From contig CAVZQN010000007.1 of NCBI GenBank assembly GCA_963777505.1, forward strand, positions 64,001-128,000: DNA of 64,000 nt. The letters run 5' to 3'. Each line of letters starts with the position of its first letter. Within the stretch, counting starts at the first letter, position 1. The stretch comes from an uncultured bacterium. Its GTDB lineage: Bacteria; Acidobacteriota; HRBIN11; JAKEFK01. The translations under genes and the position numbers were made by a program. This document shows, piece after piece, positions 32,935 through 43,639 of this stretch. The notes beneath the pieces were generated by a model. That model did not search any database and was not told the DNA's origin. It was given only the letters and a program-made list of their open reading frames with translations.

Positions 32935-34212
32935 CTAACTGCGCTTTCTGGGTTTTGGGGTTTTCTTAATAGTACCAGTTCTTAACTTGATACCAGACAA
33001 TCGTTCAAAGGCAGCAGCCGAGTCCACGAGTCCGTATCCATAGCGATTCGGAGGATCTTCGGAAGAAAGCGGCTGACAAGTTTCGAAAATAGCCTGTTCC
33101 AGTTCTAATACGTTAGTGCCAGGCTTCGCTTCCAGCAAAAGAGCAGCAACACCAGCAACATGCGGAGTTGCCATTGATGTTCCATCCATGGCCTGAATTT
33201 TGTTGCCTGGCCGCGCGGAGATCACATTGACACCCGGTGCTATGACATTCGGTTGATTCGGATCTTCTTCTCTCTGAAAGATCTGACTGCTGGAGAAATC
33301 GGCAACACGATCGGCTTCGTCCATTGCGCCTACGGAAATCGGTTCCGGATAATTTCCTGGCGATCTGCTTGTAGCGATTCCTTCGTTTCCTATTGCGAAC
33401 ACACTAAGAATGCCGCGATCACGAATCCTGCGCACAACCTCCTGGAAAAATGGTGTATATCCACTGAAGCCTAATGACATACTGATCACTTGAACTCCAG
33501 CCGTAATCATCCATTCCAAACCAGCGAGAACACGAAGCGTCGCCTTCCCGCCTTCGATCACCAGAGCGCTATAAAGATCGACCTTCGGCGCAACACCGAT
33601 CTTCAAACCCTGGAATGAACCACCACAAATCGTGCCGGCCGTATGTGTTCCATGATCGTCCGTATCATGCGGACTGCTTTTGGGAACGGGCTCTCCATCG
33701 AAATCAAACTCCTCCCATCCTGCAATACGATTCTTTAAAGCGGGATGCTTCCCATCGATGCCAGTATCAAGATGACCAACTTTGATTCCAGTTCCTGTGA
33801 GTCCTTGTGCCCACAATTTTTCAACATTCAATTTTGAAATGCCCCAAGTTGCCTTTTCAATTACGGCTTTCGCCGGATACTTACGAACGGGACGGATTAA
33901 AAATACCTGTTCCAGTGGAATGACTTCTTGAACTGCAGGTTTTTTCGCCAATGCATTTAAACCAGATTGATCCGTATAACCAACAACAATTCCGAGATTG
34001 GGAAATTCCTTGGTTGCAGATGGTGAAGGCAACATTGTGCCTCGCCTGGTGCGAATTTCGGTTGCAGGTTCTGGCGATGAACGCAGAAGTTCATTTTTCA
34101 CATCATTGATTTGTGAGCGTACGATACGAGTTGACAAACCAGCTGGCTGTCTTAAAACGACAATGACGTTTGCATAGCCAAACTGATGGAAGCATCTCTC
34201 AATCTCATTCAT
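32935..34212 (-). CDS. S8 subtilisin-like serine protease
   Basis: HLDTG, HGTHTAG, GTSMATPHVAG catalytic triad; no clear signal peptide. Confidence 0.93.
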   Translation of the reverse strand: MNEIERCFHQFGYANVIVVLRQPAGLSTRIVRSQINDVKNELLRSSPEPATEIRTRRGTMLPSPSATKEFPNLGIVVGYTDQSGLNALAKKPAVQEVIPLEQVFLIRPVRKYPAKAVIEKATWGISKLNVEKLWAQGLTGTGIKVGHLDTGIDGKHPALKNRIAGWEEFDFDGEPVPKSSPHDTDDHGTHTAGTICGGSFQGLKIGVAPKVDLYSALVIEGGKATLRVLAGLEWMITAGVQVISMSLGFSGYTPFFQEVVRRIRDRGILSVFAIGNEGIATSRSPGNYPEPISVGAMDEADRVADFSSSQIFQREEDPNQPNVIAPGVNVISARPGNKIQAMDGTSMATPHVAGVAALLLEAKPGTNVLELEQAIFETCQPLSSEDPPNRYGYGLVDSAAAFERLSGIKLRTGTIKKTPKPRKRS

Positions 34213-34324
34213 CTGAGTGTCCTTAATTAAACCACGGAGTCACGGAGAACACGGAGTTAAATATTAAAGCTATCTCTTTAATGTTAGCAGATATGAAATT
34301 AGAACAAGAGGCATCAAATTGGAT

Positions 34325-35551
34325 TTATAGACAATGCTTTGCGTCCACTTTGCTGTTCGGATCGATCCAATTGACGATTTGACTCGCTACGACACAGTTC
34401 CCGAGTGCCGTAAAATGTCCGTCTTTCGGGAAAAACAACATACGCCCAGAGTTCGCATCGCGGAAGGCTTTCAATCCAGGCGTAAGATCCAAAACAGGAA
34501 TCTCGTTATTTTTTCCAAACTCAATCAGCCTTTTCGCAGGCTTTTCGAGATCGTACTTTGATGGATCAAGTAGTCCTTTCGTTTTTGCTTGTTCGGTAGG
34601 CTCGATCAGCGGTGAAAATGGAGCAACAACAATCATAAATTTTGCATTGCGCGATTCACTTACGGCTTTCATTTCGCGCAGCAAAACTTCAGTGATCTGC
34701 CATGCGGTTTGCCATTGAGAAGCATCATTGCCTGCGTCAAAAACTCCCCAGGTTAAACGTGGTTGTTCTGTTGTAATGGGTTTAGGGGATTCATGAAAAG
34801 CGGCACTAACCTTCCCTTGAATAAATTGCCGTGTGAAATCGACCGCACGATAAACGACTGAATGCAGTCGCAACCAGGCATTGATATTTTTCGGGAACGA
34901 CAATCTTTTCGGCTCATCGAACGGATCACGATAACCTGACCAGGGCACTTTCTGCAGTTCGTTTAAGCTGTTCAGATCAGTCGTTGAATCTGTTGGCAAA
35001 AAGTGAGGTGCATCCCAGGGCGTTTTGATAATTCCTGAGCGATAGTTATCGGAAACATCATTCCCTGTGAAAAACATGAGCAGCACAATATCGGGTTGCT
35101 TTTTCAGTGGGTAGTTGAGCAGGTTCAAGTATGTTTGATCAATACCCCAGTTGCGCATTCCAAGATTCAAAATATTCCAGTCAGAGCGGAAGCGATGCAT
35201 TTGTTCGGTCCAACGATAATTCAATTCGACTTCCCATGCTGTTACAAATGAATCGCCGACAGCGAGGATCCGTGTTCCAGTTGCTGCTTCCGGAAAATCT
35301 ATGCGCGGATCACGAAATCCCATCGCATTGAATTGGAGCCTTACATCGAATTCGCCAGGTTCGGCGAAGCGCGAATGCGACAACGGCAGCGGCAAACGGC
35401 CAACTTCCTGCGTCAGCTTGATGTAAGACTGAGAAGAACGAACTGGCAAAAGCTTCAACATCCGTCCAGCAATCTCAGCCACAAAGATTGAGAACACAAG
35501 ACTCATCAAGAATGCAAGTAGCTTAATACGCCGCGTTTTCGTCAGTGCCAC
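34325..35551 (-). CDS. SGNH/GDSL hydrolase (AlgX/AlgJ-like), membrane-anchored
   Basis: GDSF, GNDVSDN, DGHF motifs; N-terminal TM helix. Confidence 0.85.
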   Translation of the reverse strand: MALTKTRRIKLLAFLMSLVFSIFVAEIAGRMLKLLPVRSSQSYIKLTQEVGRLPLPLSHSRFAEPGEFDVRLQFNAMGFRDPRIDFPEAATGTRILAVGDSFVTAWEVELNYRWTEQMHRFRSDWNILNLGMRNWGIDQTYLNLLNYPLKKQPDIVLLMFFTGNDVSDNYRSGIIKTPWDAPHFLPTDSTTDLNSLNELQKVPWSGYRDPFDEPKRLSFPKNINAWLRLHSVVYRAVDFTRQFIQGKVSAAFHESPKPITTEQPRLTWGVFDAGNDASQWQTAWQITEVLLREMKAVSESRNAKFMIVVAPFSPLIEPTEQAKTKGLLDPSKYDLEKPAKRLIEFGKNNEIPVLDLTPGLKAFRDANSGRMLFFPKDGHFTALGNCVVASQIVNWIDPNSKVDAKHCL

Positions 35552-35560
35552 AATCGATTC

Positions 35561-36670
35561 CTATCGTCCTTTCGCCGGAAGTTTCCTGCGCCACCGTTTC
35601 TGTAAGCGGACAGCAACAATCGGTGAGCGATAAATTGTGATAGCTCCTGTTTCTCGAATCTCCGATTGAAAGTCCTCTTTGTATTTCTCTAAACCAAACA
35701 ACATATCCAGCTCTTTTAAGCCGAGCTGCAAGGATGAATGGATGATGTTGCCCAGCAATAATCGACCCGGGCTGGCTTTGCGGTAATTCTGGTCGTAACA
35801 TGCAAGCCAATAATATAAACGGCCAGCCCAATGAAAACCGATGTGACCTGCAATCAATTCACCATTCAAGATCATTGCATCAAATCTTAAAGCGCCATAC
35901 GAAGCCATTTCATCTACGATGTAATTGTAAAAGTCACGATGAATCTGGTGGCGCAAAAAGCTTCCCTTTGAAGCGAGCCTGCTCCATTCTCTAACATGCA
36001 GCTCAAAGAATTGCGGCAAAATATTCTTGATCTCTACCGGATCAGTAATGGTTTGAAACTTCAAATCACCTTGAGTATTCAACCAATTCGTTTTGCGGCG
36101 GTGGTGTACACCTTGCAGCACATCATGCGACTTTTGAAAAGCGTTGCCATTGCAAATTGGATGCTCATGACGCGCCTCTTGATAGATCAACCATGAGCCA
36201 AGCTTCAGCCAGTATTGAAGCTTCTGAAGTTTTGTGAGACTTCCATTGTATGGACGTTCGAAGAACTGCAGTAAAGTTGACTGCCCTGGTATCCGGCGAA
36301 GAGTCAAAATCTCCCAACTCGTCTGAGTCTTAAACCAATCAAATACGCACTTCAAGCTTTCGTGATCGCCTGCCGTCAAGATGAAGTTATTGTAGTCGCC
36401 GCGTGGTCTTCCAATGAGTTCCCAATTTTTGGGCGTATGTTTTGATGCTTGAAATGGTGCAATGAGACGCGGAGCCCCTGTCGCATCTTCCAGAACTACA
36501 ATATTCATATTCCGGCTATCTCCATAGGCGCGCCACCATGCACGCGCAAAGCCGGAAGTAGCAAAGAGATCAGGAAAATCACTTTTGCTGAGCAAATGAT
36601 CCCATGCCGAAGATATCTCTACTAACTCATCGTAGTTTTGGATAAGCCGACAGTTTAAAATTGAACTCAT
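35561..36670 (-). CDS. GNAT family acetyltransferase (CelD/BcsL-like)
   Basis: AWDHLL..FARAWW, SPGRLLL, ELDMLFGLEKYK. Confidence 0.85.
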   Translation of the reverse strand: MSSILNCRLIQNYDELVEISSAWDHLLSKSDFPDLFATSGFARAWWRAYGDSRNMNIVVLEDATGAPRLIAPFQASKHTPKNWELIGRPRGDYNNFILTAGDHESLKCVFDWFKTQTSWEILTLRRIPGQSTLLQFFERPYNGSLTKLQKLQYWLKLGSWLIYQEARHEHPICNGNAFQKSHDVLQGVHHRRKTNWLNTQGDLKFQTITDPVEIKNILPQFFELHVREWSRLASKGSFLRHQIHRDFYNYIVDEMASYGALRFDAMILNGELIAGHIGFHWAGRLYYWLACYDQNYRKASPGRLLLGNIIHSSLQLGLKELDMLFGLEKYKEDFQSEIRETGAITIYRSPIVAVRLQKRWRRKLPAKGR

Positions 36671-37758
36671 ACGACGGCTTTCTGTTTCCCACGAGAAGAT
36701 TTCAATTTTGTTGCCAGAGCATGGATTGGGGAACGATGAATCGACAGGATCACATTTTCGCGAAAGTCAGATGTATATTCATTTTTGTGTTGTTGAAGGC
36801 CGCGGCCAAGATCGAATTCAGATATCCCCTCCTCGATTGAACTTTTGATCTGATGGTATCGCAGCATCCGCCCAGGACCGACTCGCGCATACGCAAGATC
36901 AAAACAAGTTATCCATGCATCGATACGATTATTCCACTTGGATACGATTGAAAAGGCGATCGGCTTTTGATTAACGGTAAGCATATCAAGCCGCAGTGTC
37001 CGATATGACTCAATCTCATCAAAAAGGTAAAAATAAAAATTACGCGTTTCCGGTTGGGCAAGCTGACTGACTCTACCGCGTGATTGCCATTCTTCAACAT
37101 GAATTTTACAGAAGCATTCAAAATGGCGTTTCATTTCAATCTTGTCCATAGTCGTTTCGTATGATGTTGTCCCTTCGCGTTTCAAGATATTCAGGCCATA
37201 CCTGTAACTTTTTTTCCTCAGCAGGTCGTCCATTGTGTTCAATGTTCCCTGGCTTATGTATGGGTGATCACGCCTCGAATCCTGCTCCACGAATAGCGAT
37301 CGCGGACGAAGCCAACGATTAAATTTTTGAGCCTTACTCAGTGACGACGAATAATGTAGATTGAAAAAGCGCGAAATTGTCGCTTCCCCTGTTGTTCGAA
37401 GTACTAATTTATTCCAACCCGATTGATGTTTCAGCCAGGTAAACAGAGAACGTAATCCTTCACGATCCTCTGCTTGCATAATGAAAGGGTTGTAGTTGAT
37501 CAGGTTGGTGCCTGCTAATTCCCATCGTTCCGGATTTTTTTTCTCTGCCTGAAACGGAGCGATCACACGCAGCATTCCTGTGTTATCTTCAATGACAGCA
37601 ACATGCATGTCGCGTGTATTTTCATACGCACGCCACCAGGCTCGAGTGAAACCAGAAGTCGAGAAAAAAGCTGTATATTCGCTTTTAGCGACCAAAGCAT
37701 CCCAGGCTGGTGAGATTTCCTTTAGTTCGTCATAACTTCGGATGAATCTCCCTTTCAT
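36667..37758 (-). CDS. GNAT family acetyltransferase (CelD/BcsL-like), tandem paralog
   Basis: AWDALV..FTRAWW, GPGRML, EFDLGRG; 4-nt overlap with the downstream GNAT. Confidence 0.85.
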   Translation of the reverse strand: MKGRFIRSYDELKEISPAWDALVAKSEYTAFFSTSGFTRAWWRAYENTRDMHVAVIEDNTGMLRVIAPFQAEKKNPERWELAGTNLINYNPFIMQAEDREGLRSLFTWLKHQSGWNKLVLRTTGEATISRFFNLHYSSSLSKAQKFNRWLRPRSLFVEQDSRRDHPYISQGTLNTMDDLLRKKSYRYGLNILKREGTTSYETTMDKIEMKRHFECFCKIHVEEWQSRGRVSQLAQPETRNFYFYLFDEIESYRTLRLDMLTVNQKPIAFSIVSKWNNRIDAWITCFDLAYARVGPGRMLRYHQIKSSIEEGISEFDLGRGLQQHKNEYTSDFRENVILSIHRSPIHALATKLKSSRGKQKAVV

Positions 37759-37962
37759 TGACGAACTTGCGGCTTTTTGTGAGCCACCAGGACCTGGCAA
37801 TTTACTTCCCCCCGATTGCTTTTATTATATGCCAACCCAGTTTTTGACAAAAATCTGCGTCCGGTGGTTATGGTCTACATATATAGACTATTAGCCCCAA
37901 AACCGAGCATTAGCCAGCTCATGCAGGATAGTTTGTTATACTGAGACGAGCCGGGGGTAAAT

Positions 37963-38631
37963 ATGAGCAAAATCAGAAATACCGGCGCCGGAATTCCAAC
38001 TCCACCCGGCGGTCCGGATTCAACATCGCCTATCCAAAATTCAAGCGCAGCAAATGAAACAACTCACACCAATTCAGAATCTCCTTCAGCCTCTCAAAAG
38101 CCGGTACCTGGTGACAAGCATGCTGCCGGCGATCTCAAAACAAAAGGTGATCGCTTAAAGTCAAAATTGGATTCAGAACTTCAAAACAAAAACAAAGGGG
38201 TGGATGATAAAGAGCTTGCGTCCCAGGCGGCAAAAGGACAGCAACGATTTGCACCTCCGTATGTGCCTGTCGGACCTGTTGTCATGGGCGATAACATTGG
38301 TGTTCCAGGGCAGACCCAAAAGCCAGCTGAGACTGGACAAACTCCGGAGCAAAAAGCACTAGCTGAAAAGGCGGCAAAAGATCAGGTACGATTCGCGCCT
38401 CCATATGTACCGGTTGGACCTGTCGTGATGGGTGACAACATCAGCACTCCCGGTCACATCAATGCAACTGAGACGAGGCAAATGAACCTGAAAGCGGATC
38501 AGTTCCAGATTAATGATCAAGGCAATCTGGTAATCTCAAACGAAAAACTCGTGGAATATTTTAAGTCCTTGAAAGAAAAAGGTCAGGAAATCTTGCTGGG
38601 AATCACTCCAAAGAAACCAGAGGATAAATAA
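37963..38631 (+). CDS. Candidate RiPP-like precursor / modified substrate with two identical 18-aa cores
   Basis: RFAPPYVPVGPVVMGDNI at 38245-38298 and 38389-38442; 5 nt upstream of a RiPP-type radical SAM gene. Confidence 0.7.
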   Translation: MSKIRNTGAGIPTPPGGPDSTSPIQNSSAANETTHTNSESPSASQKPVPGDKHAAGDLKTKGDRLKSKLDSELQNKNKGVDDKELASQAAKGQQRFAPPYVPVGPVVMGDNIGVPGQTQKPAETGQTPEQKALAEKAAKDQVRFAPPYVPVGPVVMGDNISTPGHINATETRQMNLKADQFQINDQGNLVISNEKLVEYFKSLKEKGQEILLGITPKKPEDK

Positions 38632-38636
38632 TAAAA

Positions 38637-40625
38637 ATGGTCCGTGAAAAACCAGAAGTCATTCTGGTTAATATGCCTTTTCATGGCTACATGCCTTCTC
38701 TTGGATTGAGTTTGCTCAAGTCGTGTCTTTCAGCGAAACAAATCTCAAGCAAGGTGCTGTACTTTGGTCTTCCTTTCGCCGAACGCATCGGCCGTGATTT
38801 GTATCATTGCCTTGCAAATGGCTATCCGCGTCCGATGGATCTGTTGGGCGAATGGATTTTTTCTACATCTTTGTTTGATCGCGAAAATTCGGAATACATC
38901 GAAGAAGTCCTGGTCAAGCGATCGGAAATTTATCCTGACATCGTTGATCACACAATTAACATTCCCGATCGTTTGTTTGAAAAAATCCGTGAGTATCAAT
39001 CGATGGCGCCAGAGTTTGTCGATGACTGTGCGGAAGAAATTTTACGTTACTCGCCCAGAGTCGTCGGGATCGGCAGTGTATTTCATCAGCAAATGGCCTC
39101 GCTTGCTTTGGCGAAACGGCTCAAGGGACTCGCGCCGGAAATTTTGATCGTTCTTGGCGGAGGAAATTGTGAAGGAGTCATGGGTGCCGAAATCGCACGT
39201 CAATTTCCTTTTGTTGATGCGGTTGTCTCCGGCGAAGGTGAATTGGTCTTCCCCGAAATCGTTCAAAAGCATTTACAAAACGAAAGCATTTCCAAATTAA
39301 AAGGCGTCTACACATTTAACAATGCTTCATCCGCATTTGCTTCGAACCAGTTTCCGAATGCTCAAAAAACTCCGCATCTCGATGATCTTCCGTATCCTGA
39401 TTACGATGATTTTTTTGAGCAGCATAACGTAAGCAGCCTGGATTTCGGACGTCAGGTGCTTTTTGAATCCTCACGCGGATGCTGGTGGGGCGAACGAAGT
39501 CATTGCACTTTTTGCGGAATCAGCAGCGAATCAATGAGTTACCGAAGCAAATCTCCTCAACGCGCATTTGAAGAAATCTCTTACCTTTCCGAAAAGTACA
39601 AAAGCAAAAAAGTTCATGTTGTGGATTGCATTCTGGATCTGAAGTATTTCAAGGACTTCCTTCCAAATCTTGCTAAACGTGAAACAAAACTGGATATTTT
39701 TTACGAAGTGAAAGCGAATTTGAAAAAGGATCAGCTTCGCTTGTTACACGATGCAGGTGTTACAACAATCCAACCAGGGATCGAAAGTTTTAGAAACTCG
39801 CTCCTGCAATTGATGGGGAAAGGCGTTACTGCACTGCAGAACATTCAGCTTCTTAAATGGTGCAAGGAGCTGGGAGTACGAGTGTCCTGGAATATTCTCT
39901 GGGGATTTCCAGGAGAGGATCCGGAAGAATATCATCGCATGACTGAACTCATTCCGTACCTTACGCATTTGCCTGCGCCACAAGCAGCTTGTCGAATCCG
40001 GCTTGATCGTTTCAGTCCAAACTATGAGCACGCGAAACAGCTTGGAATCACAAAAGTAAAACCTCATCCGGCTTACTTTTACCTCTATCCTTTTTCAGCG
40101 GAAGTAGTTTCAAACCTTGCATACTTTTTCGATTACGACTACTGCGAAGACCGGGATGTCATGAGTTACACGAATAACTTATGGCATGAAGTGAACAAAT
40201 GGTGGAGTGTTGAAACGGATTCTGATTTATTTTACATGGATAATGGCTCTCACCTCCTTATCTGGGACTTGCGGCCCGTGGCAGTTCAACCGCTCACCGT
40301 CCTAACAGGATTGCAAAAAGTTCTTTACGAAAAATGTCAGGCACCTCAGACGTTAAGCGAATTAAAACGTTCCATTGAAAATAATTGTTCCGATTCGGAT
40401 ATTCAGGTCTTACTGGAACCGGTTATCAATCGCGGGCTGTTAGTTCAAGATCAAAAATCCTATTTGAGTCTTGCGGTTCCATTAGGGGAGTATCAGCCAA
40501 AAGGCGCAGCACTGCAAAAGTTTTGCACGCTTTTGGAGAGACTCGGACAAACTGAAGATATGCAATTTACAATTCCCCAGACAGCTTTCTGTCCGGCGGA
40601 GGAACCGGCATCGGTCGATGTCTGA
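38637..40625 (+). CDS. RiPP maturation radical SAM C-methyltransferase (B12-binding, TIGR03975-like)
   Basis: LVNMPF..PSLGLSLLK, GEWIFS, GGGNCEG B12 domain; ESSRGCWWGERSHCTFCG (CX7CX2C); FYEVKANL, IQPGIES, RLDRFSP; winged-helix-like C-terminus. Confidence 0.92.
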   Translation: MVREKPEVILVNMPFHGYMPSLGLSLLKSCLSAKQISSKVLYFGLPFAERIGRDLYHCLANGYPRPMDLLGEWIFSTSLFDRENSEYIEEVLVKRSEIYPDIVDHTINIPDRLFEKIREYQSMAPEFVDDCAEEILRYSPRVVGIGSVFHQQMASLALAKRLKGLAPEILIVLGGGNCEGVMGAEIARQFPFVDAVVSGEGELVFPEIVQKHLQNESISKLKGVYTFNNASSAFASNQFPNAQKTPHLDDLPYPDYDDFFEQHNVSSLDFGRQVLFESSRGCWWGERSHCTFCGISSESMSYRSKSPQRAFEEISYLSEKYKSKKVHVVDCILDLKYFKDFLPNLAKRETKLDIFYEVKANLKKDQLRLLHDAGVTTIQPGIESFRNSLLQLMGKGVTALQNIQLLKWCKELGVRVSWNILWGFPGEDPEEYHRMTELIPYLTHLPAPQAACRIRLDRFSPNYEHAKQLGITKVKPHPAYFYLYPFSAEVVSNLAYFFDYDYCEDRDVMSYTNNLWHEVNKWWSVETDSDLFYMDNGSHLLIWDLRPVAVQPLTVLTGLQKVLYEKCQAPQTLSELKRSIENNCSDSDIQVLLEPVINRGLLVQDQKSYLSLAVPLGEYQPKGAALQKFCTLLERLGQTEDMQFTIPQTAFCPAEEPASVDV

Positions 40626-41625
40626 TCATTCCGAACAAAAGGATATCGAATATCTGCAACGGCTTTCCATTTCCCATTTTGCTACACGCATCTTGATGTC
40701 CGGTATTCAAATCGGGGTGTTTGAAACGATCGGTGATGGAGAAAAAACAGCGGATGAAATCGCCGAACTCACAGCAAGCTCTGTTCGCGGTGTCCGCATG
40801 CTTTTGGATTGTCTGGTTTCGTTTCATTTACTGACAAAATCAAATCAGCGATACCGGCTTGCTCCAATTTCATTTCGTTATCTCAGAAAAAACAGTCCAG
40901 AGTACATGGCGCATTTGTGGGAAGAGGAGTCGACCCTGGAGTATTGGAATCATTTGAATCAAGTGATCCGTTCAGGTAAGCCCATACGAAAGAAAGGAAG
41001 CCCGGCGGAGGAAGCCGCATCATTTGATGCACTTGCCCGCAGTCTTTATGTAGTGCAATGGAAATCTGCTCAAATAGCAGCGAAGATTCTTTGCTCACCC
41101 AGCGATGTCAAATTGAATGTATTGGATGTTGCGTGTGGATCAGGAGTTTGGGGCATTGCGATTGCGGAAGCCGATCCACATGCCCGAATTGTGGCACATG
41201 ATTTTGCTGAGATTCTGGAAATCACAAAAAACTACGTGACGCAGCATCATGTTGATGAACAATTCACTTATATGGCCGGTGATTTAAGTGCTATAGATTT
41301 TGGCGAAAGCAGATTCGATCTCGCGATCCTTGGAAACATTGTCCATTCTGAAGGCGAACGATCTTCACGCGAATTGTTCACCCGCATTCATCGATCACTC
41401 AAAGATTCAGGAAGAATCGCAATCATCGACATTCTTCCAGATAACGAACGCACAGGGCCTCAATCTTCTTTGATCGTAGCTCTTGCAATGTTACTCGACA
41501 CTGAAGAAGGTGATCTCTTCACACTTTCCGAATATACAGCGTGGTTAACGGAAGCAGGGTTTGTTGGAGTCGAAACCGCCGACATCTCTTATCATTCCCC
41601 GATGATCCTCGCACGCAAAGGATAA
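40618..41625 (+). CDS. SAM-dependent methyltransferase, O-methyltransferase family 2 with dimerisation domain
   Basis: N-terminal wHTH (TADEIAELT), VLDVACGSG, AGDL, GRIAIID, EYTAWLTEAGF; 8-nt overlap with the rSAM gene. Confidence 0.9.
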   Translation: MSDHSEQKDIEYLQRLSISHFATRILMSGIQIGVFETIGDGEKTADEIAELTASSVRGVRMLLDCLVSFHLLTKSNQRYRLAPISFRYLRKNSPEYMAHLWEEESTLEYWNHLNQVIRSGKPIRKKGSPAEEAASFDALARSLYVVQWKSAQIAAKILCSPSDVKLNVLDVACGSGVWGIAIAEADPHARIVAHDFAEILEITKNYVTQHHVDEQFTYMAGDLSAIDFGESRFDLAILGNIVHSEGERSSRELFTRIHRSLKDSGRIAIIDILPDNERTGPQSSLIVALAMLLDTEEGDLFTLSEYTAWLTEAGFVGVETADISYHSPMILARKG

Positions 41626-42931: not shown

Positions 42932-43639
42932 ATGTCTTTTCTGTATCCACCCGTGAAAGTAATGTTCCCGCATCTGAATGGAAACGCAAAGATCCACATG
43001 TCATCCAAATTTGCAGGATGCGGAGAAGAAATCAAAGAATATAAAGTTGACGAATTCAAACAGGCTACCGGCGTTGAATATCTTTCAACTCTGGAGTTTC
43101 AAGATGAGAATACTAGACAGCGCATCAGCGAACAATGTACCCATGCATCACAAAACGGTTACATCGACTCAAAGAGAAAATGGCTTGGAGCTTTATATCA
43201 GGATCAAATCAGAACTCATTACGTCGCAGATGTTTCGATCCGCTGGATTAATGAATCACTGGAATATGGTTTATTCGCGAATCAAAATATCGGCGCATGG
43301 GATTTTATCGGAGAATATACAGGAGTCGTTCGGAGACGTTATCCTATCTTTGGAACAATGAGTGATTACTGCTTTTTATATCCGACCTCCCGATACTTCT
43401 ACGGAAAGCACGTTTTAGACGCCAAAATAAAGGGTAATGAAATCCGTTATGCAAATCACAGCGATGATCCAAACTGCGAAGTCACCGGAATCTTCGGTGA
43501 GGAATTATTTCATTTGATTTTGAGAGCCATCAAGAATATTCCAGCAGGAACGCAATTAACATATGATTATGGCCCACGATACTGGAGATGGAGATCTTGC
43601 TTACCTAATGTTAACGGATCTGAATTCGAAAATATGTAA
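42932..43639 (+). CDS. SET domain protein-lysine methyltransferase (start uncertain, possible frameshift near 43020)
   Basis: YGLFA, FIGEYTG, GNEIRYANHSDDPN, QLTYDYG SET motifs. Confidence 0.85.
   Translation: MSFLYPPVKVMFPHLNGNAKIHMSSKFAGCGEEIKEYKVDEFKQATGVEYLSTLEFQDENTRQRISEQCTHASQNGYIDSKRKWLGALYQDQIRTHYVADVSIRWINESLEYGLFANQNIGAWDFIGEYTGVVRRRYPIFGTMSDYCFLYPTSRYFYGKHVLDAKIKGNEIRYANHSDDPNCEVTGIFGEELFHLILRAIKNIPAGTQLTYDYGPRYWRWRSCLPNVNGSEFENM

Follow-up and report, generated by a model that had tools for sequence, protein, structure and literature searches.

A duplicated, strongly conserved core peptide beside a B12-binding radical SAM enzyme: a candidate RiPP-like methylation operon in an uncultured acidobacterium

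A 64,000-nucleotide stretch of DNA from an uncultured bacterium of the phylum Acidobacteriota (contig CAVZQN010000007.1; the whole stretch is called the window below) carries, at positions 37963 to 41625, three genes that encode a putative substrate protein with two identical copies of a Pro/Val-rich peptide, a cobalamin (B12)-binding radical S-adenosylmethionine (SAM) enzyme, and a class I SAM methyltransferase. We call the first of these genes gene A and the repeated peptide the core. On balance, we think that the operon is a minimal post-translational methylation system resembling those of RiPPs (peptides that are made by the ribosome and then modified after translation), with the core as its substrate. 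The core peptide is under strong purifying selection, the three genes remain linked in close relatives, and the same core recurs in other bacteria near genes for B12-binding radical SAM (rSAM) enzymes.

Results

Gene A (37963-38631, forward strand) encodes a putative substrate protein of 222 amino acids (aa) with a disordered N-terminal half, the two cores, and a small C-terminal domain. It is followed on the same strand by the gene for a 662-aa B12-binding rSAM C-methyltransferase of family TIGR03975 (38637-40625) and then by that for a 335-aa class I SAM methyltransferase with the architecture of O-methyltransferase family 2 (MT; 40618-41625). Only 5 nucleotides (nt) separate the gene A stop codon from the rSAM start codon, which has a GAGGA Shine-Dalgarno-like site about 12 nt ahead of it, and the start of the MT gene overlaps the end of the rSAM gene by 8 nt (ATGTCTGA), with a GGAGGA site of the same kind about 14 nt ahead of the MT start. 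A first-pass annotation of this DNA, made from the letters alone, had described three tightly coupled genes with no peptidase or transporter in the operon, and the open reading frames (ORFs), the gap, the overlap, and the gene content all proved to be as described. Such spacing is a layout typical of translational coupling. Scans for consensus promoters and terminators did no better than on shuffled sequence.

The two cores share the peptide RFAPPYVPVGPVVMGDNI and lie 48 aa apart, copy 1 at 38245..38298 (forward strand, residues 95-112) and copy 2 at 38389..38442 (forward strand, residues 143-160). We compared the copies codon by codon and found that 7 of the 18 codons were identical and 11 were synonymous, all of them differing at the third position, with no nonsynonymous difference. 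The flanks were quite different in this respect. The 20 codons before the cores comprised 5 that were the same, 2 synonymous, and 13 nonsynonymous, and none of the 8 codons after the cores was the same in both copies (2 synonymous, 6 nonsynonymous). When 11 random substitutions were simulated, all were synonymous in 0 of 200,000 trials; when the substitutions were confined to third positions, all 11 were synonymous in 5,473 of 200,000 trials. The synonymous-only differences, the contrast with the flanks, and the simulations together show that the core peptide is under strong purifying selection, as had been proposed from the identical peptides and their 11 third-position codon differences. The original observation as a whole, the operon with its duplicated core, is confirmed.

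The cores lie in an old internal DNA duplication (38202..38456, forward strand) with two 111-nt copies, which are 71% identical and 144 nt apart. Tandem Repeats Finder detected no tandem repeat. Each core is preceded by the pattern K-x-L-A-x2-A-A-K-x-Q and followed by x-x-P-G, again as first described. The two stretches ahead of the cores, KELASQAAKGQQ (38209..38244, forward strand) and KALAEKAAKDQV (38353..38388, forward strand), have this pattern in common and may each form a short helix; AlphaFold2 (AF2) placed helices at residues 84-88 and 128-136, respectively, both with low confidence. The core itself contains no Cys and a single aromatic pair.

Gene A matched no Pfam or NCBIfam family at E ≤ 0.01. 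The families searched included NHLP and Nif11, so the earlier statement that the protein lacks a leader of either type holds. A profile of gene A, C-terminal domain included, had 0 matches in the PDB, and the ESM Atlas contained no usable match. In metagenomes we found about 48 full-length homologues of 150 to 250 aa with one to three cores each, and in a few of these variants a LysM domain replaces the disordered N terminus. Across 17 aligned members, APPYVPVGP.V is invariant. An AF2 model built on this 17-sequence alignment had a mean pLDDT (predicted local distance difference test) score of 56 over the whole protein. Only residues ~170 to 210 folded, giving strands at 181-183 and 189-191 and a helix at 194-205, with a pLDDT of 82 to 83 for the block.

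The folded block corresponds to a conserved β-hairpin plus helix domain (MNLKADQFQINDQGNLVISNEKLVEYF; 38476..38592, forward strand, residues ~172-210), a segment that the first-pass annotation had picked out as a possible follower. Its invariant columns in the 17 members are L176, D179, Q180, F181, I183, G187, N188, L189, I191, N193, L196, F200, K201, and L203, which gives the family pattern L..DQF.I...GNL.I.N..L...FK.L. With the Pfam threshold relaxed to E ≤ 10, the C terminus returned only a chance-level match to a lectin. On the basis of the model and its conservation, we regard this mini-domain as a candidate follower for recognition by the rSAM enzyme. A predicted complex of the rSAM with gene A residues 125-222 scored 0.28 against a mark of 0.32, and we use it neither for nor against binding. 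The N terminus had been described as disordered and export-like; the AF2 prediction bears out the disorder, but no export signal was found in gene A.

The rSAM matched TIGR03975, "RiPP maturation radical SAM C-methyltransferase," with 651.1 bits against a cut-off of 281.85 and over model positions 1-606 of 606, in agreement with its initial assignment as a B12-type CX7CX2C C-methyltransferase. It also matched PF04055 (68.8 bits), and its B12-binding domain (39012..39260, forward strand, residues 126-208) gave a borderline match to PF02310 (32.3 bits against a cut-off of 32.1). The CX7CX2C iron-sulfur cluster motif (CWWGERSHCTFC; 39480..39515, forward strand) is formed by C282, C290, and C293, which were invariant in 20 aligned homologues. 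Among solved structures, the nearest was no closer than TokK (E, 6e-8). MT combines PF00891 (63.5 bits) with the PF08100 dimerization domain (45.1 bits), and among solved structures it comes closest to 2r3s (E, 1.8e-36), RedM, MfnG, and hydroxyindole O-methyltransferase.

The genome to which the window belongs (95.9% complete) has ten genes with B12-binding domains, and the window's rSAM is its sole TIGR03975 gene. No other candidate substrate adjoins the rSAM in that genome. NHLP had no match there, and Nif11 had a single subthreshold match, on another contig. A search of the same genome for a PoyD-type epimerase (TIGR04517, E ≤ 1e-5) gave no match, and the control genomes were silent in this search too.

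We then looked at the relatives of the rSAM. The order gene A-rSAM-MT was found in all four loci long enough to show it: the window, L099 (genome G001), L130 (genome G003), and L170, a metagenome contig whose rSAM and MT are 84% and 72% identical to those of the window. In a further locus (L129, genome G005), the contig ends after the rSAM. Across a sample of 301 genomes of the same phylum, 25 had an rSAM homologue at E ≤ 1e-40, and 30 rSAM loci were read. A motif gene lay within 1.5 kb of the rSAM in 4 of the 30, and these are exactly the loci whose rSAMs are 81 to 100% identical. The other 26, with rSAMs of no more than 50% identity (the next-closest being 46 to 50%), had no motif gene within 1.5 kb. 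It had been stated in advance that close rSAM homologues without such an upstream gene would count against the proposal; all four close rSAMs have the gene.

In a collection of 5.8 billion proteins, the rSAM clade showed a sharp break between clusters of at least 72% identity (19 nonself clusters) and those of no more than 55%. For 12 of the 19 upper-clade clusters, the longest contig was exactly as long as that of a gene A homologue, an indirect sign that the two genes lie on the same contig. One partial rSAM, 77% identical, was labeled Acidobacteriota by its depositor. A 754-aa protein (P0141) on a 42,030-nt metagenome contig, to which the three-core homologue P0005 was matched by size, was considered, in view of its Pfam domains, as a clean rSAM-MT fusion and rejected. 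In it, rSAM residues 1-470 run on in frame into MT residues 58-335, and it may be either a natural deletion variant or an assembly artifact.

The core is not confined to gene A homologues. The weaker matches of the gene A search were unrelated proteins of 219 to 290 aa ending in GKGP(I/V)P(T/S)FAPPYVPVGPVVMGDNIxxPGHLxx. A degenerate DNA pattern for FAPPYVPVGPV found at least 119 stretches in species-representative genomes, spread over about eight phyla as judged from record titles. Among the matches listed, motif carriers came from Myxococcota, Acidobacteriota, Verrucomicrobiota, Lentisphaerota, and Gemmatimonadota, as well as from Pseudomonadota (including cultured Roseibium), Armatimonadota, Desulfobacterota, and Binatia, and in nearly all of these matches the motif starts 24 to 36 residues from the C terminus. 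A 36-column profile of the motif region had 12 invariant columns in 56 sequences, with FAPPYVPVGPV invariant throughout. Searched against 1.84 billion representatives, the profile matched 353 clusters (clustering at 50% identity) with a threshold of E ≤ 0.001; with E ≤ 1e-10, the number was 82. In the window's own genome, the motif occurs in gene A only. Of the earlier proposal of an undescribed multi-core RiPP, the RiPP-like part is the reading that we favor, but the system is not a lone novelty, the core being widespread on unrelated scaffolds.

One carrier is a scaffold of 200 to 260 aa without a family assignment, which AF2 modeled with a pLDDT of 83 and a pTM (predicted template modeling score) of 0.82. 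Foldseek found nothing in the PDB at E ≤ 0.001, and a wide fold search reached a Z score of 6.6 at best, no higher than noise. A sequence profile of the scaffold met a single match in the PDB, irrelevant at E 0.15, and the ESM Atlas clusters returned for the 290-aa scaffold were all labeled "hypothetical protein." A 219-aa "MDW..." type of carrier has an extra AGPRFG tail. In a scaffold family of 280 to 295 aa beginning MPxxxxIKP (L013-L126, e.g., L023:3883-4944; P0057, P0074, and P0087), there is a second conserved Pro-rich motif, VPGLPWYPAFAAFPGPMAPPxPNVP, and members often occur as several tandem paralogues (cluster 0, with 235 ORFs at 113 loci). The AF2 fold of this family is confident (pTM 0.82) and has no clear counterpart in the PDB.

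Other carriers differ in how the scaffold and motif are presented. A twin-arginine translocation (Tat) signal is present in P0068, P0114, P0244, P0259, and P0270. Three Tat-signal carriers, of 591 to 640 aa, run ~350 to 400 residues past the motif into a domain without a Pfam match, so the motif of a secreted protein can also be internal. P0244, P0259, and P0270 were considered as substrate-rSAM fusions and rejected, having no rSAM domain; they are Tat-signal proteins with a C-terminal extension. Multi-core carriers P0102 (two cores) and P0053 (three) have an N-terminal LQRLAGNRAV motif, which we take to be the one known from the N termini of DUF4157-type toxins; Pfam and NCBIfam assigned neither protein to a family. 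In P0307, an N-terminal Tox-PAAR-like domain is fused to the scaffold and motif, and a subset of the proteins with the PGHLxx end lies beside DUF2169 genes at 7 of 151 loci (L183:6134-8422 on the reverse strand, L186:2914-5217 on the forward strand, L032, L058, L089, L095, and L172). DUF2169 and PAAR-like families are linked to type VI secretion. Finally, P0064 and L194:353-778 (forward strand), of 142 to 148 aa, have subthreshold matches to NHLP-clan leaders (E, 2e-6 to 9e-4) and a VVGG double-glycine site ~10 to 15 residues ahead of the core. By these features, both look like classical leader-type precursors of the motif.

To see the genes around the motif, we used 8-kb blocks with arbitrary limits, at least 119 of them among the matches listed, so many neighborhoods are incomplete. 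A B12-rSAM gene was detected by tblastn in 56 of the 119 blocks listed and in 14 of the 20 blocks that had at least 3 kb on both sides of the motif. It was on the motif strand in 49 of the 56, and its modal start was just after the motif gene. Clustering of the ORFs agreed with this, the B12-rSAM cluster (cluster 2) containing 59 ORFs at 57 loci. By tail type, a B12-rSAM was present in 18 of 21 blocks with the AGPRFG tail, in 2 of 2 with the gene A tail, and in 21 of 32 with other tails. Methyltransferases with PF00891 and PF08100 occurred in 14 of the 119 blocks listed.

The enzyme of cluster 2 differs from that of the window. It is ~470 aa long, matches PF02310 and PF04055, and scores only 93 to 111 bits against TIGR03975. 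The canonical CX3CX2C is the cluster motif in 49 of the 59 ORFs. The other ten comprise nine fragments and a single CX7CX2C ORF, the G001 orthologue of the window's rSAM. The best subthreshold NCBIfam matches of the cluster 2 enzyme were ApyD, BchE, HpnJ, and MJ_1487. By these sequence criteria, the partner rSAM of the widespread motif belongs to a family different from TIGR03975. The gene A mini-domain was seen with no enzyme other than that of TIGR03975, and it is the CX3CX2C enzyme that accompanies the other scaffolds, a split that would fit carrier-specific recognition of a common core.

In the complete genome of a cultured Roseibium (G301), the locus L160:9269-13165 has a gene for a CX3CX2C B12-rSAM and, after it, one for a motif protein of 358 aa whose N terminus is of low complexity. 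There are also convergent genes, one for a class I methyltransferase (PF13489) and the other for a PhyH-type dioxygenase, and housekeeping genes flank the locus.

Nine proteins at and around the window's operon were scanned with Pfam: the rSAM, MT, two PF13480 proteins, and ALGX-like, S8, TPR, and SET proteins, along with gene A, which had no family. YcaO, amidohydrolase, P450, DUF5825, S9 peptidase, and MFS transporter domains were absent from these nine. Divergently upstream (32935-37800, reverse strand) lie genes for an S8 subtilase, for an SGNH/AlgX-like protein, and for a tandem pair of paralogous acetyltransferases of PF13480 (FemAB/GNAT-like). The S8 peptidase gene is 3.7 kb upstream of the operon on the opposite strand. 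This flank had no tblastx match in the relatives' loci. The S8 peptidase, GNAT-like, and SGNH genes were considered as parts of the system and rejected, the flanks not being common to the relatives, and the block is probably a separate system. Downstream (42932-43639, forward strand) is a gene for a bacterial SET-domain protein (PF00856, 68.7 bits). By tblastx, its region matched G001 at 63% identity (L099:6792-7373), some kilobases downstream of that genome's triad; no other flank similarity was found. Since the flanks, with the exception of this one SET-domain gene, are not shared with the relatives, the three genes make up a self-contained module.

Discussion

We propose the following mechanism. 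Gene A would be made as a largely disordered protein presenting two identical Pro/Val-rich cores. The cotranslated B12-rSAM enzyme would recognize this protein, probably through the C-terminal hairpin-helix domain and/or the pre-core helices, and would transfer methylcobalamin's methyl groups to unactivated carbon atoms in the side chains of core residues, with Val, Pro, and Phe as the precedented targets. MT would add a methyl group to a heteroatom, the candidates being the hydroxyl of the invariant Tyr or the Asp or Asn of GDN. Phenolic O-methylation of the Tyr is plausible in view of MT's relatives; the Asp and Asn are alternatives suggested by analogy with BotOMT and PoyE. This would leave the peptide segment more hydrophobic and resistant to proteases. 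Since neither a protease nor an exporter is encoded in the operon, the product would either stay as a modified protein or be released by unlinked factors. Since the same core is found behind Gly-Gly leaders and with Tat signals, LysM, and a PAAR-like domain, it probably acts outside the cytoplasm.

Several lines of evidence lead us to view the core as the probable substrate. The characterized members of the enzyme family C-methylate peptide side chains, and the residue types of the core match those methylated in bottromycin (Phe, Val, and Pro) and in polytheonamide (Val and Ile). The linkage of gene A to the rSAM is tight and specific. The same core also attracts a second, unrelated family of B12-rSAM enzymes, and elsewhere it is carried by leader-type precursors with Gly-Gly sites.

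Other observations weigh against methylation of the core. RiPP antibiotics do not typically have a core that is near-invariant from phylum to phylum, and gene A, at 222 aa, is long and belongs to an operon lacking a protease and a transporter. No PqqD-like RiPP recognition element was found in rSAM residues 501-662 by Pfam at E ≤ 10. CobS (PF02654) was not found in the window's 95.9% complete genome, so cobalamin would have to be imported, and the host organism may depend on imported corrinoids. No B12-rSAM was present in 63 of the 119 blocks listed, many of them incomplete, and the proportion of blocks that had one was low for the PGHLxx-end (16 of 48) and PGGF-end (12 of 44) tail types. Of five genomes with an rSAM-free block, all metagenome assembled and of unknown completeness, three had no cluster 2-like rSAM at E ≤ 1e-40; the other two have such an enzyme, in one case ~11.5 kb away on the same contig. 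These rSAM-free blocks and genomes would be expected if the motif were itself a binding, targeting, or assembly element, with gene A not the (main) substrate of the rSAM and the adjacency of their genes due to regulation, chaperoning, or chance. The DUF2169 neighbors and the PAAR-like fusion likewise suggest roles in secretion machinery. We nevertheless consider such a stand-alone role unlikely, given the translational coupling and the conserved triad, the modal arrangement with the rSAM directly downstream of the motif gene, and the lack of an alternative precursor close to the window's rSAM. Moreover, two unrelated B12-rSAM families at the same motif are hard to explain without an enzyme-substrate relation.

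If the core is the substrate, the reaction might still be of another kind, with the B12-rSAM carrying out a cross-link, cyclization, or rearrangement and the class I methyltransferase being the only methylase. According to PMC13331322, the chemistry of cobalamin-dependent rSAM enzymes extends to forming and contracting rings and to forming thioethers. The widespread partner rSAM is not TIGR03975, its subthreshold matches include nonmethylases, and if both rSAM families act alike on the core, their common reaction need not be methylation. On the other hand, the window's rSAM is a full-length TIGR03975 protein with CX7CX2C, a motif so far tied only to peptide C-methylases, and the core has no Cys and a single aromatic pair, so we think this improbable. 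We give slightly less weight to the core as a precursor from which a small conserved molecule, either a cofactor or a signal, would be made, with the scaffolds as mere carriers. PqqA gives PQQ and MftA gives mycofactocin in this way. FAPPYVPVGPV does not vary among 56 aligned tails of about eight phyla, with 353 clusters carrying it, and invariance of this kind is what one typically sees in cofactor precursors and not in antibiotics. The variation in core copy number from 1 to 3 and the PhyH-type dioxygenase at the Roseibium locus would also suit such a precursor. Against it, no peptidase or further tailoring genes are conserved alongside the core, the window's operon having only two methylases; many carriers have secretion features (Tat, Gly-Gly leader, LysM, and PAAR-like domain); and a folded scaffold of 200 to 260 aa is conserved together with the tail. 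Whatever the modification, a core that hardly varies from phylum to phylum points to a single conserved target or physical role and away from an antibiotic shaped by an arms race.

The nearest known systems share parts of this arrangement. In the passages cited here from PMC5682303, PMC11285071, and PMC10849626, the unconventional CX7CX2C motif is common to PoyC, the bottromycin C-methylases, and MpcB, all of them peptide C-methylases. PoyC methylates the Cβ of Val and Ile (PMC11285071, PMC5682303). It belongs to the proteusins (polytheonamide, with PoyA and PoyB/PoyC, and aeronamide), whose rSAM is of the same TIGR03975 family with CX7CX2C and which, as far as those sources describe them, also have an extra class I methyltransferase, PoyE, that N-methylates Asn. 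Versions of the present core with NHLP-like leaders, as noted, exist elsewhere. In contrast to proteusins, gene A has no NHLP or Nif11 leader, its operon has no dehydratase, protease, or exporter, and its 222-aa precursor presents two identical cores that are near-invariant across phyla rather than variable.

In the bottromycin pathway, as outlined in the cited parts of PMC11285071 and PMC5682303, the CX7CX2C B12-rSAMs BotRMT1 to BotRMT3 methylate Phe, Val, and Pro, the O-methyltransferase BotOMT esterifies Asp, and instead of a leader the precursor bears a follower at its C terminus. The core described here is similarly rich in Phe, Pro, and Val, followed by Asp. Unlike in bottromycin, YcaO, amidohydrolase, and P450 are not among the nine proteins scanned, the core is internal and duplicated rather than N terminal, the putative follower is a folded mini-domain, and the host is not an actinomycete. 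The clavusporins (mpc; MpcA, MpcB, and the DUF5825 protein MpcC) provide a third comparison: the sections of PMC10849626 cited here report a CX7CX2C B12-rSAM that hypermethylates a Pro/Val/Ile-rich hydrophobic core, precursors that in some cases have followers, and a product that acts physically, as a surfactant and not as an antibiotic. The window's operon and the neighbors scanned with Pfam have no DUF5825 partner, S9 peptidase, or MFS transporter, and the mpc precursors are ~39 aa long, described in those sections from Actinobacteria only, and unrelated in core sequence. By analogy, the clavusporin surfactant is a plausible functional model for the modified core. Polytheonamides, for their part, are described in the cited part of PMC11285071 as membrane channels.

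A further comparison is with the widespread FAPPYVPVGPV-tail proteins, which share with gene A the identical invariant core and the order of motif gene and then B12-rSAM, often with a PF00891/PF08100 methyltransferase nearby. They differ from it in having an N-terminal scaffold of 200 to 260 aa, one core near the C terminus, and a ~470-aa CX3CX2C rSAM. Text searches of the literature for the core motif found no paper on it, subscription journals and supplements being outside their reach, and searches on the mining of B12-rSAM RiPPs led to clavusporins, proteusins, and bottromycin, with no system that has this core among the results. The enzymology is of a known type; what is new is the precursor family, the candidate follower mini-domain, the pan-phylum invariant core, and the dual enzyme partnership.

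A broader reading, which we offer tentatively and hold to be a good deal less certain, is that FAPPYVPVGPV(V/I/L)xG is a pan-bacterial, portable module matured by B12-rSAM enzymes, for which two unrelated rSAM families have been recruited. The core would then be mounted on at least six kinds of carrier with different export routes: the Gly-Gly NHLP-like leader, Tat, LysM, PAAR-like/DUF2169, the scaffold domain, and the multi-core follower protein of gene A. If this is true, the system would follow the logic of polymorphic effectors, with the peptide as a constant warhead or ligand that an enzyme has hardened, and the core would represent a so far unrecognized class of modified peptides that has a single conserved target or physical function.

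The B12-rSAM enzymes that methylate peptides are small in number and difficult to work with, and new chemistry has come with every new class of substrate (polytheonamides, bottromycins, and clavusporins). Two unrelated B12-rSAM families that apparently converge on one core amount to a natural experiment on substrate recognition, and the compact locus of a cultured Roseibium, with its rSAM, motif gene, methyltransferase, and dioxygenase, opens the hypothesis to direct testing. If the modified core does have one conserved role, whether as a surface-active agent, by inserting into membranes, or by binding a universal target, then proteins now annotated as "hypothetical protein" would turn out to embody a widespread piece of bacterial biology.

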